Source: Chitinophaga pinensis
GTDB taxonomy: Bacteria > Bacteroidota > Bacteroidia > NS11-12g > UBA955
Assembly (NCBI GenBank): GCA_945877575.1
Contig: CAMDUE010000002.1
Span: forward strand, 197,861 to 261,860
Direction of reading: 5' to 3'
Length of the DNA: 64,000 nucleotides
In this document: positions 4,859 to 55,750 of the stretch, one piece after another
How positions within the stretch are numbered: the first letter of the stretch is position 1
Layout: each line of letters opens with the position of its first letter
Position numbers and translations under genes: made by a program
The notes under the pieces: generated by a model
The model's input: the letters and a program-made list of their open reading frames with translations, nothing else
What the model was told of the DNA's origin: nothing
Databases searched by the model: none

Positions 4859-6212
4859 AGGAATGGCCACCGAAAAGAGGAATTTACTATGGACTATAGC
4901 TCATATAGTATTAGGCTTTTTGTGTACAATTACTCCTTTTTCTTTAATAATTTGGTTTTATTTTATATTAATAACAAATATTGGTAAGAGTTTAAATCTT
5001 TTATCTCAAAAGAAAGCTGTATTTTTTTTGTCGTTATTCTCATATCTTATTTCGTTTGAAGTATTAGATAGAATGGCAAAGACTTCACCATTCATTCCAT
5101 ACGAATTGGGAAAGTACTTTTTAGTTTTAATGGGTATAATGGGTGTTTATTTTTTTGGAGTTCGTTCTAAAAAGGGTGTTTGGATGATAATATTAATAAC
5201 ACCTGCTTTGTTTTATGATTTTAGTGGACTCAGAAATTATTACGATATTATCAATTATTATTTGGGTCCACTAGCCGTTGGTTTAGGTATTGCTTTTGCT
5301 GACCGCCTCCTAATTTCTAAAATTGCATTGAACCAAATCTTGAAATTCATTTTTTGGGGTTGTTTAGCTAGTCTAACATATACATATATTAAAACTCCAG
5401 ATTTTGAGGATATAACATTTAAACTAGGGGCGAATTTTGAAACTACCGCAGGCCATTCTTCTAATCAGGTTTCTACCGTGCTAGGATTGGGAATGTTTTT
5501 GACATTTTATAGTGTTTTCAATAAGTTAAACTTTTCCGGGAATCGAATTTTCGATGGAATTATTTTATCAGGATTTACTTTCCAGGGATTGTTGAGTTTT
5601 TCCCGTGGAGGAATGATGGTAGGCGCTTTAGGTATTGTTTTGCTTATGCTTTTACCACTAAGAAAACAAAATAGAATTTTACTTAAACAAGAGAGAAGTT
5701 CTCAACGATCATTAATTTTTGGGTTTATATTAATCGTAGTTTTATATGGAGTATTCGAAGTAGCAAATTCAATTACTGGAGGGAATCTCCTATTAAGGTA
5801 TCAAGGTGAAACTCAAGGGACCTTATTGGGAACAAAAGAGGTAACAGCTGATCATTTTTTAACTGGACGCCTGGGTATTTTTGAAAAGGACCTTAAATTA
5901 TGGTTAGAAAATCCAATTACTGGGGTTGGTCTTGGAGTATCTAATTATTTGAGAGATCCTGAAAGAATTATGGCGGCACACGTAGAGATTTCACGTTTAT
6001 TTGCAGATCATGGCGTTCTTGGTGTGATATTCGCTTATATGTTTTTTACAATTCCATTTTCTAGTTGGAATCTAAATAAAAATAGTTTACATCGAAATAT
6101 AATTTTTATTTTGTTAGTTGTTTCAACTTTAACAACATTTCATGCTGCTATGAGAACTTTTGTTACGCCTTTATTTATGATCTTTGGAGTTTTGAAAATA
6201 AAAGAAAATTGA
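4848..6212 (+). CDS. O-antigen polymerase/ligase family membrane protein (Wzy-like)
   Basis: 454 aa polytopic membrane protein with about 10 hydrophobic helices and a large periplasmic loop, embedded in a glycosyltransferase cluster. Confidence 0.5.
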   Translation: MVIEGMATEKRNLLWTIAHIVLGFLCTITPFSLIIWFYFILITNIGKSLNLLSQKKAVFFLSLFSYLISFEVLDRMAKTSPFIPYELGKYFLVLMGIMGVYFFGVRSKKGVWMIILITPALFYDFSGLRNYYDIINYYLGPLAVGLGIAFADRLLISKIALNQILKFIFWGCLASLTYTYIKTPDFEDITFKLGANFETTAGHSSNQVSTVLGLGMFLTFYSVFNKLNFSGNRIFDGIILSGFTFQGLLSFSRGGMMVGALGIVLLMLLPLRKQNRILLKQERSSQRSLIFGFILIVVLYGVFEVANSITGGNLLLRYQGETQGTLLGTKEVTADHFLTGRLGIFEKDLKLWLENPITGVGLGVSNYLRDPERIMAAHVEISRLFADHGVLGVIFAYMFFTIPFSSWNLNKNSLHRNIIFILLVVSTLTTFHAAMRTFVTPLFMIFGVLKIKEN

Positions 6213-7237: not shown

Positions 7238-8531
7238 TAGAATTTTAGAAAGAATTATACTGCCAATTGGTGATACTATTTTTGGGGGGCAATATATAAA
7301 ATCCATAAAATTAACAGAACAAATTCTTAGTCAAAACAGACAATTCATCCTTAATTTACAACGGAAAAATTTAATTGAGATTTTAACTTTAGCGCGGCAA
7401 AAGAGTGTATATTATAAACGTCTTCCAATTGAATTTCAAAACGATCCATTTAAACAATTAAGCGCTTTTCCACTGCTTACGAAAGATAATATCCGTTCAA
7501 ATTATGAGGAATTACTAACTAAGAAATCTGGACTAATAAAGAATAGTACGAGTGGTTCTACTGGCATACAAACAGAAATATATATAGATAAACAAGAACA
7601 AAGTTTAATCCGAGCAATTCAAACAATTTGGTGGAAATGGGCAGGATACCAAATAGGCACACCTATGTTACAAACAGGGCTTGGTACAACTCGTTCGTTC
7701 GAAAAAAGACTAAAAGATTTTTTCTTTCAAACATATTATCAATTTGCGTTTGGCCTTACAACAGAAAACACCTACGATGGGTTAAATTGGGCAAAAAAGA
7801 AGAAATCATTTCTAGGTGGTTACGCATCAAGCTTATTTGTATTAGCCGAAATTGCCGAAGGGCAAAAGATTAAGTTGAAATCTGCCGTATCATGGGGTGA
7901 TAAACTTTTTGATCATTACAAGAAAAAAATTGAAACGGTATTTAGTTGCAGGGTATACGAAACTTATGGAACGGGTGAAGGCCTGATGTTAGGGGCTCAA
8001 AAAGATTTGGATTATTTATACATTATGGATCCTTATTTTATTGTTGAGATATTAGATGATAATGGAAATGAAGTAGTTGATGGAGAAATTGGACATGTGG
8101 TAGTTACAAGTCTTATACATAAAACAATGCCATTAATTAGATATAAAGTAGGTGATTTAGCAATTAAATTACCATCGAATCTTTATCCCTTAAAACAAGA
8201 TTTGGCATTAGGATTATTTCAAAAAATAATAGGTAGGGAAACAGATATAATAACAACCCCATCAGGACGTAAATTAATTGTTCATTCATTTACAGGTGTT
8301 TTTGAGTATTTCTCAGAAATAAAACAGTTTCAAGTGGTACAAAAGAAAAATGATACAGCTATTACAATTAACTATATTGAAGGCATGAATTTCAGGAACA
8401 AAGTTTTAAAAGACATCCATGAAAAGCTCAATCACTTAGCAAATGAACAGTTAATGATTACTTTCAATCAAGTCTACGAAATTAAAAACTCAAAATCAGG
8501 CAAGCCTCAAATTGTTGTGATCGTCGATTGA
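7227..8531 (+). CDS. Phenylacetate-CoA ligase family adenylate-forming enzyme (CapK-like)
   Basis: AMP-binding-like motif TSGSTGIQTEIYID. ANL-superfamily architecture typical of CapK proteins in capsule and O-antigen loci. Start placed at the internal Met MFYNRIL. Confidence 0.55.
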   Translation: MFYNRILERIILPIGDTIFGGQYIKSIKLTEQILSQNRQFILNLQRKNLIEILTLARQKSVYYKRLPIEFQNDPFKQLSAFPLLTKDNIRSNYEELLTKKSGLIKNSTSGSTGIQTEIYIDKQEQSLIRAIQTIWWKWAGYQIGTPMLQTGLGTTRSFEKRLKDFFFQTYYQFAFGLTTENTYDGLNWAKKKKSFLGGYASSLFVLAEIAEGQKIKLKSAVSWGDKLFDHYKKKIETVFSCRVYETYGTGEGLMLGAQKDLDYLYIMDPYFIVEILDDNGNEVVDGEIGHVVVTSLIHKTMPLIRYKVGDLAIKLPSNLYPLKQDLALGLFQKIIGRETDIITTPSGRKLIVHSFTGVFEYFSEIKQFQVVQKKNDTAITINYIEGMNFRNKVLKDIHEKLNHLANEQLMITFNQVYEIKNSKSGKPQIVVIVD

Positions 8532-9724: not shown

Positions 9725-10874
9725 TTCATTTTCTCGTAAAACCGCTTCAAATCAATTTATTCCTGAAATTGATGGACTCAGATTTTTGGCAATTATAACA
9801 GTTGTTTTTTATCATCTTAATACGGCATTATCAAAAGAAATTGGCACAGGTTTGCAGAATTCTTTGGAATTGATGGGTGGCGCAAAAAATACCTTATCAT
9901 TGGCTTGGTGGTGGATAAGGTTGGATTTGGGTGTTAAGGTCTTTTTTGCCTTAAGCGGATTTGTGTTGGCTCTTCCTTTTTTGAGATTTTATTTGGGAAA
10001 AACAGAACGAAATATAGAGCTAAAGGGTTATTTTCTGAGAAGGTTGACTCGTTTGGAACCACCTTTTATCATCAGCCTTATTGTTTTCTATTTAATTCAT
10101 TTATTTGTATTCCGTGCCGATGGTGTGGATTACCTGTATCATCTATTAGCAGGAATTGTGTATGGTCATGTTTTTATTTATGGTGAGCCAAATCCCATCA
10201 ATCCAGTTTCCTGGAGCTTAGAGACGGAAGCCCAGTTTTATTTGATTGTACCATTTATACTTTGGGTAGTATTTAGGTCCCAGAAAAAGTGGGTTTCGGG
10301 GTTGTGGATGCTTGTTTTTTTAGTATTTAGTATTTGGTTCAAACATGATTTCATTTGGAATGATTATTGGAACCGCTCAATTCCGTCATTCTTTATCAAT
10401 TTTGCAATGGGAATAATAGCTTGTTGGGTTTACTTGGAGAATTTAGAGTGGATCAAGCGAAAATCATATTTTTACGATGTGGTTGGTTTATTGTCTATGT
10501 TTGGATTGTTTTATTTCTACAAACCACAACATCACATTTTCAATATTGTGGCTTTTAATTTTTCATTGGTTATAGTATTGATTACCGCTTTTAAATCTTA
10601 TTTATTCAATTGGATATATACCCGAAAAATCATTTATACAATTGGAGGCATGTGTTACAGCATATACTTGCTGCATTATGCCTTTTTTCATTTAAGTGTT
10701 AAACTCACCAAAAAACTTTGGATTAATTCATTCGCTTACAATGAGAATCTTTTAATACAGTTATTGTTGAGCGTACCTTTGGTTTTGTTAATTTCTTCTA
10801 TCTTTTTTTTGCTGTTTGAAAGACCGTTTATGGATAAGAATTGGGTAAAAAATTTTACTAATAGATTTAATTGA
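9717..10874 (+). CDS. Acyltransferase family 3 (membrane O-acyltransferase)
   Basis: IDGLRFLAIITVVFYHL motif. About 10 TM helices. Confidence 0.65.
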   Translation: MLNSFSRKTASNQFIPEIDGLRFLAIITVVFYHLNTALSKEIGTGLQNSLELMGGAKNTLSLAWWWIRLDLGVKVFFALSGFVLALPFLRFYLGKTERNIELKGYFLRRLTRLEPPFIISLIVFYLIHLFVFRADGVDYLYHLLAGIVYGHVFIYGEPNPINPVSWSLETEAQFYLIVPFILWVVFRSQKKWVSGLWMLVFLVFSIWFKHDFIWNDYWNRSIPSFFINFAMGIIACWVYLENLEWIKRKSYFYDVVGLLSMFGLFYFYKPQHHIFNIVAFNFSLVIVLITAFKSYLFNWIYTRKIIYTIGGMCYSIYLLHYAFFHLSVKLTKKLWINSFAYNENLLIQLLLSVPLVLLISSIFFLLFERPFMDKNWVKNFTNRFN

Positions 10875-16259: not shown

Positions 16260-16386
16260 CCGAGTTTGGCGCCGTTTTACTTCCGAGTTTGGCACTGTTT
16301 TACTTCCGAGTTTGGCGTTTTTTTAAAATACCCCCTACCAACTACCAGGTACCATCTACCAGGTACTAGGTACCAGGTACCAGGTA
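16260..16386. repeat. 23-bp direct repeats (CCGAGTTTGGCRCYGTTTTACTT, about 2.6 copies) followed by a TACCAGGTA / CTACC hexamer array
   Basis: Directly visible in the divergent intergenic region. The array is the reverse-strand version of the GGTAGN family found elsewhere in the window. Confidence 0.8.
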
Positions 16387-16480
16387 TTATATTTTGCCTA
16401 CTCGAACAAAAACTTTGTGAAGGGAATCGGTTGGTATTGAATTTGGAACGAAATTTGTAGTGATAGTTCGACAATAATTC

Positions 16481-25081: not shown

Positions 25082-26116
25082 TTATTCCATTCTCTCCCAA
25101 GTGCTTTTTAGAACTTTTGTTTTGAGGCCGTGTTTTTCGGCGAGGTAGCGCGCGAAGACGGCAGAGTAGCCGTGGGTGACGGAAATGGTGTGGGCTTCGG
25201 TGGCGAGGCAGGCGGTTTCGAGTTCTTGGAAGTCGGCGTGGTCGCTGAGAACGAATCCGCGGTCAAAGTTTCCCCAACGGCGGGAACCGCGAAGGGCCAT
25301 CCAGCCGGAGCAGGAAATTGTTAGGTGACGAGGGTCTTGTGGCGAGGGACTGGTGTCTATATTTTGGGTGTTAGGGGTCGGGTGTCGGGATTCGGAGGGG
25401 GTCGGGTTACGGGAGTCGGTGGGGTTGCTGGAGATGAGGATGTGCTTGGAGGTGGGGCGTTGGTTTTTGGTGGTAGGGTAAATGGGGGGAAGGAAGATAT
25501 TGAAGCCGTCACGGTTGAGGGCTTGGGTTGTGTCGGCGATGGTTTTGGTGACGTAGAGGGGGAGGTCTTGGAGGTGATGGATGAGACGCTGGGCTTTTCC
25601 GAGGGAGTAGGCTGAGATGATGAGGTTTTCATCGTTGTTGTGGAAGTATTCGCGGATGTCGTTGAAGATATCGGCTTGGGGTGTCCATCGAAAAACGGGG
25701 AGTCCGAAGGTGCTTTCGGTGATAAAGTGGTGGCATTTCACGGGTTCGAATGGGGTGGAGATGCCGTCATTGTTGAGTTTATAGTCCCCCGAAACGACCC
25801 AAATTTCGCCTTGATGTTCTAGTCGGATTTGCGCGGAACCGGGTATGTGTCCGGCGGGATGAAAGGAAATGTTGACGCCGTTGATGCTGATGGTTTGGCT
25901 GAAGGGAAGGGTTTGGAGGGAGATGTGTTGACCGAGACGGAGTTTCAGGATGTGTTCGTTGCCCTGGGCGGCGAGGTAGTGTTTGTGGTTGGGTCGGGCG
26001 TGATCAGCGTGGGCGTGGGTGATGAGGGCTTTGTTGACGGGCTTGTGGGGATCTATGTAGACATCGGCGGCGGGGCAGTAGAGGCCGGATGGGGTGGAGG
26101 TTAGTAGTTGGTACAT
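25082..26116 (-). CDS. Ligase-associated DNA damage response exonuclease (MBL-fold)
   Basis: GLYCPAADVYIDPHKPVNKALITHAHADHA N-terminus and HxHxDH metallo-beta-lactamase motif. An ATP-dependent DNA ligase gene lies nearby. Contains an in-frame low-complexity insert. Confidence 0.7.
   Translation of the reverse strand: MYQLLTSTPSGLYCPAADVYIDPHKPVNKALITHAHADHARPNHKHYLAAQGNEHILKLRLGQHISLQTLPFSQTISINGVNISFHPAGHIPGSAQIRLEHQGEIWVVSGDYKLNNDGISTPFEPVKCHHFITESTFGLPVFRWTPQADIFNDIREYFHNNDENLIISAYSLGKAQRLIHHLQDLPLYVTKTIADTTQALNRDGFNIFLPPIYPTTKNQRPTSKHILISSNPTDSRNPTPSESRHPTPNTQNIDTSPSPQDPRHLTISCSGWMALRGSRRWGNFDRGFVLSDHADFQELETACLATEAHTISVTHGYSAVFARYLAEKHGLKTKVLKSTWERME
25325..25480. repeat. G-rich heptamer array (GGGTGTC/GGGATTC/GGGTTAC ...) embedded in-frame in the exonuclease CDS
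   Basis: Seen directly. Encodes TDSRNPTPSESRHPTPNTQ... on the minus strand. Confidence 0.7.
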
Positions 26117-26160
26117 GGTAGATGGTACATGGTAGATGGTAGATGGTACATGGTAGGGGG
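26101..26160. repeat. GGTACATGGTAGATGG hexamer array at the exonuclease start
   Basis: ggtacatggtagatggtacatggtagatggtagatggtacatggtagggggtagggg. Confidence 0.8.
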
Positions 26161-26171
26161 TAGGGGATATT

Positions 26172-26210
26172 AAAAAAACCCCGAGGTGTTGCCCCGGGGT
26201 TTTTTGTTTT
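26172..26210. terminator. Bidirectional intrinsic terminator hairpin
   Basis: A7-CCCCGAGG-tgttg-CCCCGGGG-T6. The 8-bp stem has one mismatch. The element lies just downstream of the S46 peptidase stop on the minus strand. Confidence 0.6.
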
Positions 26211-28391: not shown

Positions 28392-28413
28392 GGTGCGAAG
28401 ATAGTAAAAATTA

Positions 28414-28560
<147 letters not shown>

Positions 28561-28642
28561 CGGATAGTGTGGGGAAGTGGTTTTATGTTTGCGGTTTGAA
28601 GGCATGGGATATTTGTACGGATAAAATACGTACATTTGTTGA

Positions 28643-28933: not shown

Positions 28934-29402
28934 GAAACTGGATGTAAAAAGGCACGACAGAAAATCATTTGTTTCTGGAAACGAAGAATTAGATCAGTTT
29001 TTTCAAACCCAGGCCAGACAGCAAATGGAGAAGCGTTTGAGTGTCTGCTTTGTCATGTTAAATGGCGGATCAAAAATTATTGGATTTTATACATTAAGTT
29101 CTGCAAGTGTAGAAGCAAATGAAAGTAGAATTTCGAGTTCAAAATATGTAAGCTTACCTGTGGTTTTGATTGGTAGACTGGCTGTACATTCTCAGTTTCA
29201 AAAGCAGGGTTTAAGTGGATTGATGTTGGTTAATATCATTGAAAGAGTTAGAAAATTATCGGAGAGTGAAATTGGGGTTAAGGGCATTTTCGTTGAGCCC
29301 AAATCCGAGGAAATCTCATTGTACTACCTTAAATATGGATTTTTGAAGCTGGAAAAAGGGGTGTTTTATCCTTTCGGTAAAAATTCAAGTAATTCTGGAT
29401 AA
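28914..29402 (+). CDS. GNAT family acetyltransferase toxin (TacT-like)
   Basis: 162 aa GNAT, translationally coupled to the DUF1778 gene. N-terminal KLDVKRHDRKSFVSGNEELDQFF is typical of TacT/KacT. Confidence 0.7.
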   Translation: MKEFRFEKLDVKRHDRKSFVSGNEELDQFFQTQARQQMEKRLSVCFVMLNGGSKIIGFYTLSSASVEANESRISSSKYVSLPVVLIGRLAVHSQFQKQGLSGLMLVNIIERVRKLSESEIGVKGIFVEPKSEEISLYYLKYGFLKLEKGVFYPFGKNSSNSG

Positions 29403-30905
29403 CAGTTCTTCAAGGGTGGCGATGTCTTTGACGGATTTATCGCGGCGCCAGCGCACGATGCGAGGGAAACGAACGGCGATGCCGCTTTTATGTCGGGTGC
29501 TACGATTGATTCCTTCGAAGGCGAGTTCGAAGACGAGTTCGGCGTCTACACTTTTTACAGGGCCGAAACTTTCACGGGTGTGGAGTTTGATCCATTTATT
29601 GACTTCTAGAATTTCAGCGTCAGTGAGTCCGGAATAGGCTTTAGCAAACGGTACGAGTTCCTCGCCTTTGTAAATGGCGAAGGTAAAATCGGTATATAGG
29701 TTGGCGCGACGACCGTGTCCGCGTTGGGCGTAGATGAGAACGGCATCAACAGTGTCTGCGTCGACTTTCCATTTCCACCAATCGCCGCGTTTACGTCCAA
29801 TTCCATAGGCTGAATCTTTGCGTTTGATCATGAGTCCTTCGCTTCTTATTTGGGAGGATTCATTTCTGATTTTCTGGAGTTCTTCAAAGTCTTTGGGATG
29901 AAAAACGGGACTGGGCTGTATGTGAGTGTTTGGTGATGGGAATAGATTGTCTAGTTGTTGTCGACGATTGAAAAGGGGTTCCTGGCGAAGGTCTTGACCG
30001 TTAATTTCGAGGAGGTCATAGGCTAAAAACACGACAGGGTAGTCTGTGAGAGTTTTTTTTCCGGGGGACTTTCTTCCGAGTCTTTTTTGCAGGTCTTGAA
30101 ACGGTCTTGGGAGTTGAAGTTCAAAGTCCCAACAAAGGATTTCCCCATCGAGGGCGCCCGAAAAAGCATCCCAAGAAAGCATGGAGGAAGCAAGTTCAGG
30201 AAATTGGTGGGTGATGATGTCTTCGCCGCGTGACCAGAGGTTTATGGAGTTGTTGCGTTTGATGATTTGCGCGCGGATGCCATCCCATTTAGGCTCTATT
30301 TGATAATTTGTAAGTGGATGAATATCTGTTGATTGAGGATCTTCATTGAAGGGAGACGCAAGGAAAAAAGGGTATGGTTTGGTAGAATTTAGATGGGGTT
30401 TTGGTGAGATGATGAGGTCTTGGTAGTTGGAGTTTTGCACGGTCCAATTTCCCATCAATCGGAGGTTGAGCTCGTCTTTTTCGATGCCTGTGTGAGCGTG
30501 AAGGGCTTGAACGAGAAGTCCTTGAGAGACGCCAAGTCGGAAGCCGCCGGTGAGGAGTTTGATTGATGGTAGTTGGTAGGGGGTAGAGGGTAGGGGGTAG
30601 AGGGACTGTGAGTTTTGGAGGATGAGGTGGATGGTTTCGGCGAGGTCACCTACTACGGAGTAGGATTCTTCGAAGAGCCAATCGGGGATTTGGGCGGTTT
30701 GGATGGCCCATTGTTTGAGTTCGGATAGTTTGATTTGTCGTTTGGGTCGGCGGCCGGTGAAGATTGCGATGACCATGAGTTTGTCAGGGTCTGGGGCTTG
30801 GTTGAAATAATGGGTTAGGGCTTGCACCTTACGGGAGTTTTTGGTGGTGGAGTCGAGTTCGTAGAAAAGTTTGGAAAAGAGATCAGGAACTTCGAAGATG
30901 TGCAT
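29385..30905 (-). CDS. ATP-dependent DNA ligase (ligase-associated DNA damage response type)
   Basis: N-terminal FSKLFYELDSTTKNSRKVQALTHYF. Motif I EPKWDGIRAQI (the adenylated Lys). 506 aa. Contains an in-frame GGTAGN array. Confidence 0.8.
   Translation of the reverse strand: MHIFEVPDLFSKLFYELDSTTKNSRKVQALTHYFNQAPDPDKLMVIAIFTGRRPKRQIKLSELKQWAIQTAQIPDWLFEESYSVVGDLAETIHLILQNSQSLYPLPSTPYQLPSIKLLTGGFRLGVSQGLLVQALHAHTGIEKDELNLRLMGNWTVQNSNYQDLIISPKPHLNSTKPYPFFLASPFNEDPQSTDIHPLTNYQIEPKWDGIRAQIIKRNNSINLWSRGEDIITHQFPELASSMLSWDAFSGALDGEILCWDFELQLPRPFQDLQKRLGRKSPGKKTLTDYPVVFLAYDLLEINGQDLRQEPLFNRRQQLDNLFPSPNTHIQPSPVFHPKDFEELQKIRNESSQIRSEGLMIKRKDSAYGIGRKRGDWWKWKVDADTVDAVLIYAQRGHGRRANLYTDFTFAIYKGEELVPFAKAYSGLTDAEILEVNKWIKLHTRESFGPVKSVDAELVFELAFEGINRSTRHKSGIAVRFPRIVRWRRDKSVKDIATLEELLSRIT
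30568..30605. repeat. (GGTAGN)6 array in-frame inside the ligase CDS
   Basis: ggtagttggtagggggtagagggtagggggtagaggg. Encodes PLPSTPYQLPS on the minus strand. Confidence 0.8.
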
Positions 30906-37269: not shown

Positions 37270-37899
37270 ATGAGTAAAAAGTCGACCCGAGAAAACATCC
37301 TCAGAAAATGTTTTGAAGCTGTTGAAAAACAAGGATTTGAGGCTCTTAGAACAGACAAAGAGATTCAAAATTTAAGTATATCGAAGGGGGCATTTTATCA
37401 TTATTTTCCAACGAAATTAGACTTGGGATATGCCTTGATTGAGGAAATAATCAAGCCAAAATACGAACAAAAGTGGTCAACCTTATTGGAAAATGAGTCG
37501 GAGATTGCATGGGCATTGCACAATTTGCTGGAAAAAGAGAAGGCCACCGCAAGCGAACAATTGATTTCAAGGGGCGATGTTCTGTACAACTTGATGTTGG
37601 AAATGAGCGGGGTTGATTCGCAATTTCGACTAAAGTTGGATGAGGTTTTAGAGATACAGGTGAAAATCTTGCAGAAAGCTTTGTTGGCTGGAAAGAATAA
37701 CGGACAATTCAAGTCGGGAATGGACTCACGTTCAATGGCTTATTTGTTGATAGGACAGTTGCACGGATGTTATGCAATAGCCAAAACGCGCGCGAGCAAA
37801 GAGGTTTTTATTTCAATGGTTAGCGCTTTGCAGCGTCAGTTACAGGAAGTGTTATATGCACAAGACCCCTCGCTGATGAAGCAAAGGGTCCTGGTTTAA
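37270..37899 (+). CDS. TetR/AcrR family transcriptional regulator
   Basis: N-terminal HTH KGAFYHYFPTKLDLGYALIEE. Confidence 0.8.
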   Translation: MSKKSTRENILRKCFEAVEKQGFEALRTDKEIQNLSISKGAFYHYFPTKLDLGYALIEEIIKPKYEQKWSTLLENESEIAWALHNLLEKEKATASEQLISRGDVLYNLMLEMSGVDSQFRLKLDEVLEIQVKILQKALLAGKNNGQFKSGMDSRSMAYLLIGQLHGCYAIAKTRASKEVFISMVSALQRQLQEVLYAQDPSLMKQRVLV

Positions 37900-37933
37900 G
37901 ATCGGAAGAAAGTAAGAGTAATATTTATAGATG

Positions 37934-37970
37934 ATGCTCGGATTTAGAAAAGTCCGAGCATTTGTTTTTT
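37934..37970. terminator. Intrinsic terminator hairpin (9-bp perfect stem ATGCTCGGA/TCCGAGCAT, T-run)
   Basis: Seen directly, immediately after the TetR stop codon. The stop codon of the convergent minus-strand gene lies in the loop. Confidence 0.6.
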
Positions 37971-38960
37971 AGAGCCGTAGTCTTGAATGAGGAATTTGTT
38001 TCTCGCAGATTGTCCGGTTTTGCTGATAAGAGTGCCATTTTCTTTGCAGGTTTCGAGCCAATTTTCGGTAGAATACACCCAGTGGGGCGCTTCACTGAAT
38101 ACCACGCCACTCATTTGCGAACAGATTACAGCAATTTTATCTTTTAGGGTATGAAAAATGATGGAATTATCGGTGGTAATCATGGGCGTAAAAAATAATT
38201 TGTAACGCGCTCCCATATATTCTTCAACATAAGGATTGAGTTTTCGACCGAGTTCAGCCTGTCTATACACCAAGTTGATGAGTTGATCGTATTCCTTAAG
38301 AACATTGAGGAAGGTGCGGTCATCGGCGAACATTCCAGATTCTTTGTAGTGATAAATTTGATAAAGGGTTGAATATAGGGTTTCATATCCCCAGATTTCA
38401 TGCGAAGCAATTTTGAGGTATTTTTCGGCGAGTTTCATCCACTTGAATTCATTGGGCTTTGCTTGAAATTTCGTTTTATTCAATTCAGGTTGTTTGAGAA
38501 ATTCCCGGTTCCAAATGAAGTTTTTGAACTGGGCCAGCGCCGGAAACCACATATAGTAGAACATAGGCACCTCTTTGGCACCATACATTATATGTGAGTG
38601 ATTTTGGTGGATGCAATGATCGAGACGCGATTCAAGTTCCGTATAAAAATCGTCTGAGGTATAAGTTTCAAAATTGAGGGTTTTTAATTGTCCGCTTAGC
38701 CAATTATTATCAGCGTGTGAGAATTTATTGAGGTCAATATTGAACTCTTTGGCGAGTAAAATCATTTCATCGGCTCTAAGTGACTGCGGATTTCTGAGTC
38801 GGCGGTATGCCGCATCCTCCGAAATACATAGCAAATCAGCCATGATGGTTGCCGTTCTAAATCCCAATTTGCGGGTTTTTTCAGTAAATTCTTGAGTAAA
38901 AGTATGTGCCATAAGCTTTATAAAAGTGTTTGACCCATTAGACACCAATTTTTTGGACAT
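37944..38960 (-). CDS. HTH domain-containing protein of unknown family (putative regulator)
   Basis: N-terminal HTH-like KLGFRTATIMADLLCISEDAAYRRL. 338 aa. Divergent from the giant T9SS gene. Confidence 0.45.
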   Translation of the reverse strand: MSKKLVSNGSNTFIKLMAHTFTQEFTEKTRKLGFRTATIMADLLCISEDAAYRRLRNPQSLRADEMILLAKEFNIDLNKFSHADNNWLSGQLKTLNFETYTSDDFYTELESRLDHCIHQNHSHIMYGAKEVPMFYYMWFPALAQFKNFIWNREFLKQPELNKTKFQAKPNEFKWMKLAEKYLKIASHEIWGYETLYSTLYQIYHYKESGMFADDRTFLNVLKEYDQLINLVYRQAELGRKLNPYVEEYMGARYKLFFTPMITTDNSIIFHTLKDKIAVICSQMSGVVFSEAPHWVYSTENWLETCKENGTLISKTGQSARNKFLIQDYGSKKQMLGLF

Positions 38961-49341: not shown

Positions 49342-52300
49342 TTAAAATGCTGCTTCAACGCCAATTAGGAACCGGAAATCTACGAAGTTTTCTTGTGGAT
49401 TCACGGTATTTAGGAAAAATGGAAAATCAATTCTATATCGCATGGTTCTTGGAGAGTAAGAGTAGTTGCGATTGATGATTTTATTGTAATTATTGATGTT
49501 GATCCACGTTCCTATTCCGGCATCTGCGAGCAGGTTGCTGTTGTACCAATTATTTGATTTTTGGATTGCGATCAAACCTGCATCAGCGAATAAATAGGGT
49601 GAAAAAGAAATGAATTTATTTTTCAAAAAGGGCGAAAGTAACTTTCCGAAGTGCCATTCTGTGTTGATAGATATACCAGAAGTACCTCTAAAAAATGCCA
49701 TGATGCTGTCGTTTGATTTGATTCCAATGGCTCTTCCATGAAATCCTCTGAGGTTCAGTCCGCCACCTAAATGGGTGTAATTCGGTTGGATGTTTCCGAG
49801 ATTTCGAACCATCATATTTTGGAATTGAGTTTCAGGGTTGGCGCTTGATGTGTAAAGGGCTGATTCAGGTGATGGATTCGCACCTTGAGCTAATTGAGCG
49901 AATACTCTAGACTTGAAAGTGGTTGATTTAATAGGTTGTTGGTGTTTCCATTCTAGGTTAAACCAACCAAATTGTGTTTGGCTCCAAGGCGATATTAATC
50001 GGGTATCAACGGCAATGGTTCCTGACCTTGACCAACCTGAGTATTGGATGTTCCAAAACAGGTGGAAGTTGGTATTGGTTCTGTCAGACCAAGTACTTGC
50101 AGTGGGTAGATAACCATTGAAAAGGGAATTCTTGTTTATGATGGTTTCGGTGTTTGAACTAAGTGCCCTTAGGTCTTTTCCATAAAGTCCGAAGGTATGT
50201 TTCCCCAATTTCCATTTCCAACCTAGTATTGAGCTCAGACGTTGGTTTGAGGAGATGATTTCTGCAAAATATGTCCCTCCACCGCGTATGTCATGTTGCC
50301 AATTTACTAAACCATTGATGGTCTGGTGAGCGAATTTTATATAATTTAATGGGTAAATCTGATTATTAAGGGCATAATATATTCTGGCATCAAAAACATG
50401 TTTTCGGCTGGCATATTGTCCGGTAAATTTTGCACCAATCATGGTTCCAGAATACTGATTGTATGCAATTGCGGGTCTAATTAGTACTTCGTATGGTTCT
50501 AAAATATTGCTATTTGGACCTTGTCCTTGATCGAGTTTAAAGGAAATTTTCTTTTTCCAACGGTTATTCCTTCGGTCAATGTCGGCCAAAAGGTAGGTGG
50601 CGTCCAAGAAAATTTCTGTGAGTTCATGTTTGGGTTCAATGCTCACATTGATGGTAAAATCGCGGTTCAAACGTCCCCAAGAATTCCAAACCTTGGTTGA
50701 AAGCCTGTTAGGAATGATGTATTGATTTGTTGGGATGGTTAATTGGGTAAATATTAATTTTCCACTTTCGGTTCGTGTCAAAAGGTCTAAGTTCACGGGC
50801 ATGGTGAGATTTCCGTAGCGATGAACGGTGATTTTATATTGACCATTCTCGAGCTTTTTTACTTTTTTAATGCCGTAGTCAATGACTTCTTTCGATTCAA
50901 ACCATTGATCAAAGAACTTATTCAGATCAATTTGTGCTGATTGAATGACTGAATTTCGAAAATCTTCTATGTACGGATGCTTGAATTTCCATTGTTCCAC
51001 ATAGTTTTTCATGGCTATCGAGAAAATGGAATCCCCCAAGAAATAGCGCAAATTGTAGAGCATGGTAGCCGTTTTGTAGTATACATTTCCGTATCCGCCG
51101 CCATGTCCAACGGCCTCATGAAATTCATTACTATGGGTATTGAGACGTTCGTCTTCGCCATCAATGGCATCATCCAAATAGGGGCCAATGGCCCTGGAAT
51201 ATTCGGGAAATGGCTCTACTTTCAGCTCTTTCAGAGCTTCGGCCGTTAAAAATTGAGTGAATCCTTCGTCGAGAGCTGCCCGATAGGTTTCGTTGCTGCC
51301 CACCATTCCCATGAACCAATTGTGGGCCACTTCGTGTGCGATGAGTGCTCTGTGCGAGGGATAGGAACCGCCGCAGAGCGTGAGCATGGGGTATTCCATA
51401 CCATCAGCAGCGTCTGCCACCACAATTTTAGGGTATGCATACATCCCATAATTTCGGCTGTAAAAGGCAATGACTTCACTTAAATATTGCGCGGTTTTTG
51501 TCCAATTTTTGGCATTATGGGCTTGTGCGATTGCCACGCATTGAATTCCGTTCCATGTGACTTCGCTTATTCTGTAGGTTGGATCAGCTGTCCAAGCAAA
51601 ATCGTGAACGTTTTGAGCAAGGAAATGCCAAGTTTTGGTAGTTGGTAGGGGGTAGTTGGTAGTTGGTAGTTGGTAGGGGGTAGTTGGTAGGGGGGTGTTG
51701 GGTTTCGGGTTTTGGGTTTCGGGGGACGGGGAGCGGGAGTTGGGTTGGTTGATGTCAATGGCTTTTTTGAGATCATCGGGAAGTGCTTCTTCGCGGTTTA
51801 AGAGTAATCCGGTGGCTTCAACGATGTACTTTTCTGGGAGATTTAGTTTCACATCAAAGGTGCCAAAGTCGCCGTAAAATTCTTTTTCAAGGTGTTGGCT
51901 GGTTTCCCAAGTGAACTTTTGGTCATAGACGCAAATTCTTGGGTACCAATGAACACCGTTGAAATGTTTAACTCCATGATGATCAAACACTTTCATTCTC
52001 CGGCGAATGGATCCTCGATCAAAATAAGTCTTGAACCAAATTTCAAACACGCAAGAATCTCCTGATTGCAGAGGCTCAGGAAGATCAATTTTCATGATGG
52101 TATAATCAATCTGAGGATCTAAAATGACTTTTTTATAGGGTTTGGTTGATTTATTTCCTTCAATTTGAATCCATGTGATTTGTGTCCCCAAACCTTGTTT
52201 TTCGTAGTTGCCGTAGGTGGGTTTAATTTTATTTAGTTCGTAGAGTTTATCTGTTAAAGAACCTGGCTGAGTGGAGTTTTGATATAAATGAAAAAAAGCT

Positions 52301-52548
52301 TCATTCAGGGTATTGGGTGAGTTGTTGGTGTAAGTCAATCGAAGTTTACCCGTAATAACTTCCGAACTATCATCAAGACTTGCATCTATTTGATAGTGAA
52401 CTTTTTGTTGCCAGTAAGTGGTAGGTGGTAGATGGTAGGGGGTAGGGGGTACTTGGTAAATGGTAGGGGGTAGTTGGCCGTTGGTAGAGAGGAGTTTTGT
52501 GGGGAAGAGTGACCAGAAAAAGATGAGCAAAATCAAGCGCATTCTCAA
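49342..52548 (-). CDS. M1 family zinc metallopeptidase (secreted), with PT/Y-rich low-complexity linkers
   Basis: Signal peptide. HEVAHNWF...E (HEXXH-X18-E). 1068 aa. Two in-frame hexamer-repeat inserts. Confidence 0.8.
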   Translation of the reverse strand: MRMRLILLIFFWSLFPTKLLSTNGQLPPTIYQVPPTPYHLPPTTYWQQKVHYQIDASLDDSSEVITGKLRLTYTNNSPNTLNEAFFHLYQNSTQPGSLTDKLYELNKIKPTYGNYEKQGLGTQITWIQIEGNKSTKPYKKVILDPQIDYTIMKIDLPEPLQSGDSCVFEIWFKTYFDRGSIRRRMKVFDHHGVKHFNGVHWYPRICVYDQKFTWETSQHLEKEFYGDFGTFDVKLNLPEKYIVEATGLLLNREEALPDDLKKAIDINQPNSRSPSPETQNPKPNTPLPTTPYQLPTTNYPLPTTKTWHFLAQNVHDFAWTADPTYRISEVTWNGIQCVAIAQAHNAKNWTKTAQYLSEVIAFYSRNYGMYAYPKIVVADAADGMEYPMLTLCGGSYPSHRALIAHEVAHNWFMGMVGSNETYRAALDEGFTQFLTAEALKELKVEPFPEYSRAIGPYLDDAIDGEDERLNTHSNEFHEAVGHGGGYGNVYYKTATMLYNLRYFLGDSIFSIAMKNYVEQWKFKHPYIEDFRNSVIQSAQIDLNKFFDQWFESKEVIDYGIKKVKKLENGQYKITVHRYGNLTMPVNLDLLTRTESGKLIFTQLTIPTNQYIIPNRLSTKVWNSWGRLNRDFTINVSIEPKHELTEIFLDATYLLADIDRRNNRWKKKISFKLDQGQGPNSNILEPYEVLIRPAIAYNQYSGTMIGAKFTGQYASRKHVFDARIYYALNNQIYPLNYIKFAHQTINGLVNWQHDIRGGGTYFAEIISSNQRLSSILGWKWKLGKHTFGLYGKDLRALSSNTETIINKNSLFNGYLPTASTWSDRTNTNFHLFWNIQYSGWSRSGTIAVDTRLISPWSQTQFGWFNLEWKHQQPIKSTTFKSRVFAQLAQGANPSPESALYTSSANPETQFQNMMVRNLGNIQPNYTHLGGGLNLRGFHGRAIGIKSNDSIMAFFRGTSGISINTEWHFGKLLSPFLKNKFISFSPYLFADAGLIAIQKSNNWYNSNLLADAGIGTWININNYNKIINRNYSYSPRTMRYRIDFPFFLNTVNPQENFVDFRFLIGVEAAF
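51637..51750. repeat. (GGTAGN)n + (GGGTTTC)n composite array in-frame in the M1 peptidase CDS
   Basis: ggtagttggtagggggtagttgg...gggtttcgggttttgggtttcgggggacgggg. Encodes NPKPNTPLPTTPYQLPTTNYPLPTT. Confidence 0.8.
52419..52492. repeat. (GGTAGN)n array in-frame right after the M1 peptidase signal peptide
   Basis: gtggtaggtggtagatggtagggggtagggggtacttggtaaatggtagggggtagttgg. Encodes QLPPTIYQVPPTPYHLPPTTY. Confidence 0.8.
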
Positions 52549-53316: not shown

Positions 53317-53835
53317 ATGAGAGTAACAGGCGGACAATTTAAGGGTCACCCACTTCCCATGAAATTCGCTTCCCACGTTAGGCCATCGACAGACAAGATG
53401 CGTGAAAGTATGTTTAATATGCTCGCCAATCAATTGGATTTTGAGGAATTGAGTGTGTTGGACTTGTTTTCTGGGTCGGGAATTATTGCCCTTGAATTCC
53501 TGAGTAGGGGTGCCAAAGAGGTGGTTTCTGTTGATTTGGACGGAAAAAATATCCAACACCAAAAGAAGATCAGGGAAGAAAAACATTGTCAGCAATGGGA
53601 AATAGTGAAGGCAGATGTTTTTAAGTATTTGCAAAATTCACCCAAAAAATATGATTTGATTTTTGCAGATCCTCCATACGCAATGCCAAATCTGCAAAAT
53701 TTAGTATCTATGGTTCGACCGCATTTGATTGACGGTGGAATCTTTCTTTTTGAGCACCAACCTCGATTGGTCTTTGATCCGCCACCAACAAGGGAGAAGG
53801 ATTATGGAAGCAGTAAATTGAGCATTTTTGAGTAA
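53317..53835 (+). CDS. rsmD: 16S rRNA (guanine966-N2)-methyltransferase
   Basis: MRVTGGQFKGHPL. SAM motif DLFSGSGIIALE. DPPY motif. Confidence 0.85.
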   Translation: MRVTGGQFKGHPLPMKFASHVRPSTDKMRESMFNMLANQLDFEELSVLDLFSGSGIIALEFLSRGAKEVVSVDLDGKNIQHQKKIREEKHCQQWEIVKADVFKYLQNSPKKYDLIFADPPYAMPNLQNLVSMVRPHLIDGGIFLFEHQPRLVFDPPPTREKDYGSSKLSIFE

Positions 53836-53848
53836 TATTGTTTTGTAA

Positions 53849-54304
53849 ATGAAAAGAATAGCGGTTTTCCCAGGTACTTTCGACCCTGTAACGAAAGGGC
53901 ATGTAGACATAGTTGTGCGTGGGGCCAAGCTTTTTGATGAGATAATTGTGGCTATTGGAATCAATACCAAAAAGGCCATGTTGTTCGATTTAGAACAGCG
54001 CACTAAATGGCTCGAGGAGTCATTTAAACATGTTCCGAACGTGCGCATTGAGCATTACGAAGGTTTAACTGTTGAATATTGTAAAAAAGTAGGCGCACAT
54101 TTTTTGTTGAGAGGATTGCGAAATGGTACTGATTTTGATTACGAATCGCACATCGCTCAATTGAATAAAAGTCTCAATGAAGATATAGAAACCGTATTCA
54201 TTTTGAGTTCACCCGAATTGGGTTACATTTCCAGCACCTTGGTACGCGATCTGATTATCCATAAGGGAGATTATCAGAAGTTTATACCGTTTGATTTGAT
54301 TTAG
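53849..54304 (+). CDS. coaD: Phosphopantetheine adenylyltransferase
   Basis: RIAVFPGTFDPVTKGHVDIV (HxGH). Confidence 0.9.
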   Translation: MKRIAVFPGTFDPVTKGHVDIVVRGAKLFDEIIVAIGINTKKAMLFDLEQRTKWLEESFKHVPNVRIEHYEGLTVEYCKKVGAHFLLRGLRNGTDFDYESHIAQLNKSLNEDIETVFILSSPELGYISSTLVRDLIIHKGDYQKFIPFDLI

Positions 54305-54480
54305 TCCAAGGTAGTTGGTAGCAGGTAGTTGGTAGCAGGTAGTTGGTAGTTGGTAGCAGGTAGTTGGTAGTTGGTAGCTGGGCTCTGGCCCAAAACCCGG
54401 TACCCAAAACCCGAAACCCGATACCCGATACCCGATACCCGATACCTGAAACCTGATACCCGATACCCGGTACCCGATAC
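54305..54480. repeat. About 175-bp simple-repeat block: (GGTAGYWG)n then (CCCGATA/CCCGAAA)n
   Basis: Seen directly between convergent coaD and NUDIX genes. The minus strand is a (GGGTATC)n G4 motif. Confidence 0.85.
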
Positions 54481-55116
54481 CTAGTACCCAGTACCAACTA
54501 AATGCTTCTTGATGATATCGTGGATGCTGTGGTAGGACTGGAACTCAGAAGAGTTGAACCAGTCAAGTGGGGCGAAATTTGCTTCGGTGATGCCTTCTTC
54601 TTCTTGCGGTTTTAATGCGGCGGTGCCGCTGCTGTTCATTCTGTACCAGTGGGTTTCCTTTAGGAGAATGGCGTTGTCTTCGTAGTAGGCGTGGTAGGTT
54701 TCTCCGATTTTTTCGGAAATGTTGAGGTGATTGATGCCGGTTTCTTCCATCACTTCGCGAAGGGCGGCGGCAATTTGATCTTCGTGGCGTTCTATTTTGC
54801 CCTTGGGAAGATCCCAAACACCGTTGCGTTTGATGGTTAGTAATTCGTGGTTTTTGTTGAATACTAATCCTCCAGCGGCTTGAATAACGGTGTATTCTTC
54901 AATGAATTCTCTCAGTGTTTCTTGAGGTTCAGGGGTCATCAATCCGAAGGTCATGGGTTTGCCCAAGGCCTCGCTTGATATTAAGATGTTAAAACTTTTA
55001 TGGATTTCATCATCACCTATGAAATAAAAGTTTGGAATGCCTTTGAGAGCATCCAGAGAATCTGTGATGATCAACGCACCCTCATTGAAGTAGATTTTGT
55101 AAGTTTGCGGCTCCAT
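54481..55116 (-). CDS. NUDIX hydrolase
   Basis: Nudix box GKIERHEDQIAAALREVMEETGI. Confidence 0.8.
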   Translation of the reverse strand: MEPQTYKIYFNEGALIITDSLDALKGIPNFYFIGDDEIHKSFNILISSEALGKPMTFGLMTPEPQETLREFIEEYTVIQAAGGLVFNKNHELLTIKRNGVWDLPKGKIERHEDQIAAALREVMEETGINHLNISEKIGETYHAYYEDNAILLKETHWYRMNSSGTAALKPQEEEGITEANFAPLDWFNSSEFQSYHSIHDIIKKHLVGTGY

Positions 55117-55750
55117 GTCTCACGAAAGTGCAAAATTAGCAAAATTTCTTCTGGAAATAAAGGCCGTTAAGTTATCTCCAAGGAATCCCTTTACCTGGAC
55201 TTCAGGTATTAAGTCGCCCATTTACTGTGACAACAGAACCGTTTTGTCATATCCGGAAGTAAGAAACTTTGTGGCTGACTCCTTGGCTGCCAAGGTAAAA
55301 GAACATTTTCCGGAAGTTGATAGATTGGCTGGAATTGCAACGGCTGGGATTGCGCACGGTGTTTTAGCCGCTGATAGATTGAATATGTCTTACTGTTATG
55401 TTCGACCGGAGCCCAAAAAACACGGACTAAAAAATCAGGTGGAGGGGCATATGAATGAGGGCGATAAAGTGGTTTTGATTGAAGATTTAGTGTCCACCGG
55501 AAAAAGCTCCATGCAAGCGGTTGAAGGGGTGAGAAATGAAGGCGGTGTAGTTATTGGAGTGCTTGCTCTGTTCAGTTACGGATTTGCGGATGCACATAAA
55601 CGTTTTGCAGACGAAGGTATTCCGTTGTATACAATATCGAATTTGAACGTGCTGAGCGAAGTGGCTGCGAAAGAAGGATTTATTTCTATGGATGACATTG
55701 AAATGGTTCAGCAGTTCGCTAAAGATCCGCATTCTTGGGGAAATGTTTAA
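55115..55750 (+). CDS. pyrE: Orotate phosphoribosyltransferase
   Basis: PRPP-binding VVLIEDLVSTGKS. N-terminal FTWTSGIKSPIYCDNR. Confidence 0.9.
   Translation: MSHESAKLAKFLLEIKAVKLSPRNPFTWTSGIKSPIYCDNRTVLSYPEVRNFVADSLAAKVKEHFPEVDRLAGIATAGIAHGVLAADRLNMSYCYVRPEPKKHGLKNQVEGHMNEGDKVVLIEDLVSTGKSSMQAVEGVRNEGGVVIGVLALFSYGFADAHKRFADEGIPLYTISNLNVLSEVAAKEGFISMDDIEMVQQFAKDPHSWGNV

Follow-up and report, generated by a model that had tools for sequence, protein, structure and literature searches.

The DNA analysed here is a stretch of 64,000 nucleotides (the window) from an uncultured freshwater Bacteroidota lineage. Within it, two convergent genes, coaD and a gene for a NUDIX hydrolase, are separated by nothing but short repeats, G-rich in the first half and C-rich in the second. 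The locus raises the question of whether such a block serves to stop transcription from both sides, as a preliminary description had proposed by calling it a bidirectional terminator or barrier, or whether it is a repeat that expands and decays in a place where it does little harm. On balance, and with fairly good confidence, the block is read here as two abutting heptanucleotide arrays of opposite polarity, driven by slippage and hypervariable, which belong to a genome-wide GGTAGNN / GGGTNTY family and do not constitute a dedicated terminator.

The two-part block was found to be real, with the sequence as described, and to fill the whole spacer. Its G-rich units had been taken for hexamers and its end had been set at 54480, and both readings were corrected. 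Period 7 was obtained with TRF for both halves (10.3 copies in array A, 12.4 copies in array B), and in the heptamer register the block consists of 27 consecutive in-phase heptamers at about 54310-54500 (54309-54502 in the autocorrelation scan described below). The second array thereby extends into the NUDIX gene, whose final five codons and stop codon (..LVGTGY*) are supplied by repeat units. The block and its flanks comprise the following features.

53849-54304, plus strand: coaD (phosphopantetheine adenylyltransferase-like, PF01467), the left flank, with its stop codon TAG at 54302-54304.
54310-54379, plus strand: array A, ten units GGTAG(TT/CA/CT), starting 5 nt past the coaD stop codon; the sense strand of coaD carries the G/T-rich sequence.
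Within array A: a higher-order unit of 21 nt, made up of GGTAGCA, GGTAGTT and GGTAGTT.
54379-54392: the centre of the block, a mini-palindrome TGGGC-tctg-GCCCA with a 5-bp stem; neither strand has a T-run after it.
54389-54440, minus strand: a run of eight G3 tracts spaced 4 nt apart, a canonical G4 motif with a G4Hunter peak of 1.36.
54394-54498, minus strand: array B, about 15 units (GGGTATC five times, GGGTACC, GGGTTTC, GGGTTTT, AGGTATC, GGGTACT); the G-rich sequence is on the sense strand of the NUDIX gene.
54282-54497, minus strand: an open reading frame of 71 amino acids through the block, judged spurious.
54481-55116, minus strand: the NUDIX hydrolase gene (PF00293), the right flank, with its stop codon at 54481-54483.

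From position 54310 onwards, the first ten units read GGTAGTT, GGTAGCA, GGTAGTT, GGTAGCA, GGTAGTT, GGTAGTT, GGTAGCA, GGTAGTT, GGTAGTT and GGTAGCT, and TRF additionally reported the 21-nt higher-order unit (3.0 copies, 95% match). They are followed by the transition units GGGCTCT and GGCCCAA (54380-54393) and then, in 54394-54498, by AACCCGG, TACCCAA, AACCCGA, AACCCGA, TACCCGA (three times), TACCTGA, AACCTGA, TACCCGA, TACCCGG, TACCCGA, TACCTAG, TACCCAG and TACCAAC, so that the 15 units of array B have the plus-strand consensus (A/T)ACC(C/T)(G/A)(A/G). The minus strand had been described as (GGGTATC)n; this is exact for 5 of the 15 units, the others being near variants such as GGGTACC, GGGTTTC, GGGTTTT and AGGTATC. 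In each array, the 5' end of the G-rich strand faces the end of the adjoining gene. A structured RNA or tRNA at the block was ruled out, as the window contained no Rfam match and no tRNA or tmRNA (ARAGORN).

Related arrays were sought by a sliding autocorrelation scan of the 64-kb window for periods 4-12. At period 7, 322 scan windows exceeded the threshold and corresponded to seven arrays, the coaD/NUDIX block included, and no arrays were detected at periods 4-6 and 8-12 in the same scan. All seven arrays contain GGTAGNN units or their complement. Four of them are intergenic, in a sequence of which about 91% was assigned to open reading frames by a crude call (binomial p = 0.002). According to the same crude map, two arrays lie in divergent spacers, one in a co-directional spacer and one, the coaD/NUDIX block, in a convergent spacer, while the rest are located inside genes and in frame. 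The six sister arrays are these.

16329-16396, minus strand: CTACCNN units as read on the plus strand, in a divergent spacer.
26092-26175, plus strand: GGTA(G/C)AT units between two minus-strand genes, adjoining a palindrome at 26173-26205.
28412-28568, plus strand: TAGTCCG (six units), GGTAG(GG/AT) (eight units) and GGACTAT (six units), in phase with each other, in a divergent spacer.
30558-30609, plus strand: inside an ATP-dependent DNA ligase gene (29385-30905, minus strand), encoding ..LYPLPSTPYQLPS..
51630-51738, plus strand: GGTAG(TT/GG) (eight units) followed by GGGT(T/G)T(C/T), inside an M1 peptidase gene (49342-52548, minus strand).
52407-52468, plus strand: encoding the segment of the M1 peptidase that follows the signal peptide.

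A specific association of the arrays with convergent spacers was thus ruled out: of about ten convergent pairs in the window, one carries an array, as against the divergent and co-directional spacers and the three or four coding sites. None of the remaining nine convergent pairs, which overlap or are at most 47 bp apart, contains an array. The arrangement of the block recurs as well. The outer parts of the array at 28412-28568 form 40-nt arms, 80% complementary, around the GGTAG core, which makes inverted heptamer arrays a recurring layout that is not unique to the coaD/NUDIX spacer. The GGGT(T/A)T(C/T) units of array B are found again at 51690-51744, after a GGTAG array and in direct rather than inverted orientation. 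A change of motif leaves the phase intact, both in the three-part array at 28412-28568 and in the array of two to three parts at 51630-51738, as well as in the coaD/NUDIX block.

The window also shows arrays in frame within enzymes, where they appear as Pro/Thr/Tyr-rich linkers. About 24 residues (..TPLPTTPYQLPTTNYPLPTT..) are added to the M1 peptidase by the array at 51630-51738 and are missing from the orthologue in the sister species (83% identity), and the segment encoded by 52407-52468 is likewise shorter in that orthologue. The sense strand of the in-gene arrays is always C-rich and free of stop codons, giving linkers rich in Pro, Thr, Tyr and Ser (LPTTNYQ-like, PTDSRNPTPSESRHPTPNT). Outside the seven arrays, an imperfect G-rich repeat was seen at 25366-25424, inside an open reading frame at 25082-26116 on the minus strand. 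A 23-bp tandem repeat (2.9 copies, CCGAGTTTGGCGCTGTTTTACTT) at 16260-16325 lies directly upstream of the array at 16329-16396; both belong to the divergent spacer that precedes a polysaccharide-biosynthesis gene. The array at 28412-28568 is flanked by genes for an S46 peptidase and a TacA-like antitoxin, and its G4Hunter score of 2.44 is the maximum of the window.

Alleles of the block were collected by exact-protein look-ups, i.e. as contigs encoding an identical CoaD, whereas the central junction had no exact match in JGI metagenome contigs. The number of GGTAG units was 10 in the window, 16 in a 252-kb ENA contig (L001) and 11 in three further contigs (L003, L004 and L005); these alleles come from short-read assemblies, in which tandem repeats can be mis-sized, and the absolute lengths are thus provisional. 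Compared to the window, L001 contains two additional 21-nt higher-order units (42 nt) and an identical second half, from which slippage or unequal recombination was inferred. The 11-unit allele shows a different unit order and, in addition, point variants, and assembly collapse alone cannot explain these differences in order and point variants. In L003 and L004, the second array is followed at 1030-1082 by unrelated sequence (TTGTCCACTAAATATAACAATTAGTCAG..) in place of the NUDIX gene, which is due either to a rearrangement in that strain, with the array as its site, or to chimeric assembly of the contig end.

Relatives were identified by scanning species-representative genomes for coaD in convergent orientation with a NUDIX gene. 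The order was conserved in five of them, for which the identity of CoaD and the state of the spacer were as follows.

L006, sister species: CoaD 97%; spacer of about 330 bp including a 100-N gap; units TTTAGAG, GTAGAGT and GCAGAGT, then ACCGAAA and ACTAACC.
L007: CoaD 78%; spacer of 87 bp; no heptamers.
L008: CoaD 79%; spacer of 46 bp; no heptamers.
L009: CoaD 70%; spacer of about 12 bp; no heptamers.
L012: CoaD 69%; spacer of about 20 bp; no heptamers.

The repeat-free spacers in the relatives with about 78% identity indicate that the arrays were gained after the split from those relatives. The flanks of the sister species share 85-86% DNA identity with the window, and its arrays have the same polarity (G-rich, then C-rich) and are composed of other units. 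Since their gain, the arrays have diverged much more quickly than the genes on either side. Heptamer arrays with unrelated units were also encountered at other Bacteroidota loci in the coaD scan, one of them in the cultured Taibaiella chishuiensis (L041). In the sister species, the coaD frame lacks the stop codon of the window and continues into the heptamer array (10440-10800, ..KFIPFQSLGIGL..). Its assembly contains stretches of exactly 100 N at 5757-5856, 8017-8116 and 10468-10567, one of which is within the coaD/NUDIX spacer.

An origin and subsequent change by slippage or unequal exchange, tolerated in a 3' spacer, is the most likely explanation for these patterns. Arrays would grow, shrink and drift via replication slippage or unequal recombination between units, and new unit variants would spread locally, keeping the phase continuous across changes of motif. 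They would persist where they are harmless, namely in spacers, at gene ends and in regions encoding in-frame linkers. Quadruplexes, hairpins or a C-rich, G-poor read-through RNA may affect transcription as a by-product rather than as a conserved terminator function.

The block is an example of an already described class, the bacterial heptameric long simple sequence repeats. The cyanobacterial STRR (short tandemly repeated repetitive) sequences are tandem heptamers dispersed between genes, restricted to particular lineages and so variable that strains can be fingerprinted with them; the arrays described here resemble them as dispersed and variable intergenic heptamers and differ from them in phylum and unit sequences. 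Closer counterparts are the GGGNATC and GGGGA(C/T)T heptamer repeats of Xanthomonas and Nostoc, which are dispersed, mostly intergenic, extensively variable in length and sequence at the same loci between close relatives, able to form G4 structures in vitro and sometimes inverted, so that stem-loops are possible; no function was found for the GGGNATC type (Rehm et al. 2015, PMC4692102). Shared with these repeats are the 7-nt unit (of the 15 minus-strand units of array B, the five that read GGGTATC fit GGGNATC, and the others are near variants), the presence of many, mostly intergenic arrays per genome, the variability of loci, inverted arrangements, the lack of an established function and the occurrence of four or more successive G3 tracts separated by short loops (eight on the minus strand at 54389-54440, 4 nt apart). 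Unlike the repeats of Rehm et al. 2015 (PMC4692102), the arrays described here are hosted by an uncultured member of the Bacteroidota, have GGTAGNN as the dominant unit, are long (10-16 units) with no sign of a preference for four units, and are putative G4 formers. Array A (GGTAGNN) does not match GGGNATC and has only G2 tracts unless its variable positions are G. A positional rule was also formulated by Rehm et al. 2015 (PMC4692102), according to which the G-rich strand is the coding strand in arrays at or overlapping a stop codon. Both arrays of the block obey it, with array A located 5 nt after the coaD stop and array B overlapping the NUDIX stop.

Long heptamer arrays have been reported from spacers of Bacteroidetes whose close relatives lack them, in some cases with several heptamer types adjoining in one spacer (MacGregor 2015, PMC4679880). 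The arrays of that study (TAACTGA and others; Beggiatoaceae, cyanobacteria and some Bacteroidetes) resemble the present ones as tandem heptamers of mixed types per spacer. In Gramella and Aequorivita, as here, the spacers of close relatives in the same neighbourhood are shorter and repeat-free; occasional in-frame arrays in open reading frames and slippage as the proposed origin are further points of agreement. The two sets differ in unit sequence and in position, with the Beggiatoaceae repeats occurring in 2-6 copies just upstream of start codons (PMC4679880) as opposed to the 3' ends of two genes. In the wording cited by MacGregor 2015 (PMC4679880), Mrazek 2007 described heptanucleotides as the commonest long simple repeats and considered polymerase slippage as a possible cause. 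With the phase-variation (contingency) repeats of pathogens, the block has in common that it is a hypermutable tandem repeat whose unit number varies between strains. It differs from them in its unit of 7 nt instead of 1-5 nt and in its position downstream of two housekeeping genes rather than in the promoter or 5' part of a surface-protein gene; being downstream of both genes, it cannot switch coaD or NUDIX on or off by a change in copy number.

Taken by itself, the locus is ordinary, and its annotation as a terminator, gene or regulatory RNA is unwarranted. It does provide a natural comparison, in which one convergent gene pair occurs without repeats, with one set of heptamers or with another, along with copy-number alleles in one population. 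In many bacteria, no long simple repeat is more common than the heptameric tandem type, for which neither a function nor a mechanism that sets the unit length has been established. What makes such repeats arise, and whether they act at all, is a matter for the class and not for the locus.

Next to tolerated slippage, selection of the block as a bidirectional transcription insulator was considered, a reading that we regard as unlikely. Transcription from either gene would be paused by a G4 or R-loop on the gene's own G-rich array and then be terminated after Rho loading on the C-rich tract of about 70-105 nt, or a long hairpin would form; in both cases, transcription would be kept from running into the opposite gene. 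The terminator or barrier envisaged in the preliminary description is of this kind, and the comparison lends it no support: the coaD/NUDIX spacers of relatives are repeat-free and about 12-87 bp long, the other convergent pairs of the window overlap or lie within 47 bp of each other without arrays, and the same arrays are found in promoter-side spacers and within genes. Neither the sequence nor the number of units is conserved. The points in its favour are the structural potential and base composition of the block, the retention of arrays in the coaD/NUDIX spacer in two species, and arrays at other gene 3' ends, which are taken up in turn.

Quadruplex motifs were located with the pattern G3N1-7 x4 and compared to 50 dinucleotide shuffles. 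The window contained four matches, whereas the shuffled sequences averaged 0.8 and never exceeded 3. The quadruplex motif proposed for the minus strand of the block is indeed present (54389-54440) and speaks for pausing, although its peak score of 1.36 is moderate, given that three other, GGTAGGG-rich arrays in the window reach about 2.0-2.4. As to the hairpin, the two halves are partly complementary, as had been stated, with GGTA:TACC pairing at 4 of 7 positions and 82% complementarity in the outer 22 nt. The predicted fold has the form of a ladder, in which 4-bp GGUA:UACC helices alternate with 3x3 internal loops. It is more stable than expected from dinucleotide shuffles for RNA of the plus strand (-71.2 kcal/mol, z = -3.1) and the minus strand (-86.0 kcal/mol, z = -4.6) and for the DNA of the block (z = -2.4); the centroid structures of the block are much weaker than the minimum-energy ones. 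In a second null model, positions were permuted within the units of the second half, keeping periodicity and composition. Of these permuted versions, 25% (plus strand) and 10% (minus strand) folded equally well or better, so that the long imperfect hairpin of the preliminary description beats dinucleotide shuffles and is ordinary for a periodic sequence. A hairpin is thus expected from any G/T-rich array beside a C/A-rich array, and its role as a selected feature was ruled out by the periodic null.

The spacer is devoid of a canonical intrinsic terminator that could serve instead, a point in favour of the insulator. No stem-plus-T-run site was detected in 54305-54480, and the sole match in 53800-55200 falls inside the NUDIX gene. 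Directly after the central 5-bp palindrome, the plus strand reads AAAA and the minus strand GCTACC. With intrinsic bidirectional terminators, the block shares the convergent position, a small central palindrome and a long imperfect hairpin that can be drawn. It differs from them in that it has no U-tract on either strand and that its stem is made up of 4-bp helices and 3x3 internal loops. The same type of scan over 24-44 kb returned 22 terminators, compared to 17.5 expected from shuffles, i.e. no enrichment. Ordinary sites of this type do occur in other parts of the genome, which counts against the terminator reading of the block. A hairpin-plus-T-run site is present at 37933-37962, at the 3' end of another convergent pair (37270-37899 on the plus strand, 37944-38960 on the minus strand), where it overlaps the end of the minus-strand reading frame. 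The near-perfect palindrome at 26173-26205, AAAAAACCCCGAGG..CCCCGGGGTTTTTT, is bordered by an A-run and, at its other end, by a T-run and adjoins the array at 26092-26175; judged by these elements, it resembles a classic bidirectional intrinsic terminator.

The read-through RNAs of both genes would be C-rich and G-poor, with C:G ratios of 42:15 for coaD over array B and 30:4 for NUDIX over array A. In composition, they would resemble a Rho loading site in both directions, for which at least 70-80 nt of C-rich, G-poor and weakly structured RNA past the stop codon are expected; this would fit the insulator. According to the predicted folds, each C-rich tract could also pair with the G-rich half of its own transcript and thereby compete with Rho loading.

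Arrays at other gene ends were assessed in metagenome contigs, for which five consecutive GGTAGNN units were required. At least 120 contigs contained such a run; those among the matches listed have G+C contents of 33-73% and come from many habitats. Two-part arrays of inverted polarity accounted for 11 of the 145 internal arrays in the contigs among the matches listed and the window. One of them (L190; 41% G+C; 7279-7520) has the same architecture as the coaD/NUDIX block: (TGGTANN)n and then (ACCCGNN)n take up the spacer that separates a yggS-like gene from dnaN, the two genes being convergent. A second two-part block is situated at the start of the same contig. In a strand census of the 145 arrays among the matches listed, based on crude ORF calls and on loci picked for carrying GGTAG arrays, the G-rich strand was the sense strand in 47 versus 22 cases at gene 3' ends (binomial p = 0.004) and in 15 versus 18 cases, i.e. 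without bias, at gene 5' ends. This bias agrees with the positional rule of Rehm et al. 2015 (PMC4692102) and is suggestive.

These results also bear on pure slippage. Arrays occur in the same spacer in two species, and there is the L190 block, so that selection at 3' ends could contribute; the excess of G-rich sense strands at 3' ends (47 versus 22 among the matches listed) is not predicted by neutral slippage, which is again suggestive. It is rather improbable, in our estimate, that selection in this Bacteroidota lineage preserves arrays of opposite polarity at the 3' ends of genes as insulators that evolve fast and are flexible in sequence, the architecture (a G-rich sense strand adjoining each gene) being conserved and not the unit sequence. 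If true, an insulator function at 3' ends would provide the long-unexplained heptamer repeats of bacteria with a role. Slippage alone is insufficient to account for the recurrence of GGTAG in seven arrays of the window and in many metagenomes.

This recurrence is an argument for an array of binding sites, read in 7-nt units by a protein such as a nucleoid protein or a single-strand binder of the OB-fold or cold-shock type and tuning mRNA stability, translation or local chromosome structure. Precedents are CspB, which binds heptamer repeats with one protein per unit (MacGregor 2015, PMC4679880), and a Nostoc preprint, in which heptamer repeats affected promoter reporters and, with no mechanism given, a binding partner was postulated. 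We nevertheless consider such a function very unlikely, given that the sister species has different units at the same site, that units drift inside a single array, that no candidate protein was found and that coding regions, which also carry arrays, are an odd place for binding.

Finally, there is scarcely any probability that the block is coding or an assembly artefact: the 71-aa minus-strand frame noted in the preliminary description, and rightly called spurious there, does span it and was ruled out as a gene since it is pure repeat sequence, overlaps the 3' ends of both genes and stays open only as a by-product of units without stop codons on that strand, and although short-read assemblies break at the arrays (L002 and L087 end inside the block, L005 ends 12 nt past array A) and the sister species has a 100-N gap in the spacer, a block with the same centre and flanks was recovered in independent assemblies from different samples.

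Some general properties of the window were recorded alongside the arrays interpreted here as products of slippage. In most arrays, the G-rich strand is the plus strand, the exceptions being array B and the array at 16329-16396. The GC skew of the plus strand is strong across the window (1-64000), ranging from +0.10 to +0.30 per 8 kb, and persists in minus-strand genes (mean of +0.16 versus +0.22 in plus-strand genes), a pattern that suggests an unusually large replication-strand asymmetry. The G+C content is 0.25-0.35 across much of the first 24 kb, including the polysaccharide-biosynthesis gene, as opposed to 0.44-0.56 in several genes at about 25-34 kb.
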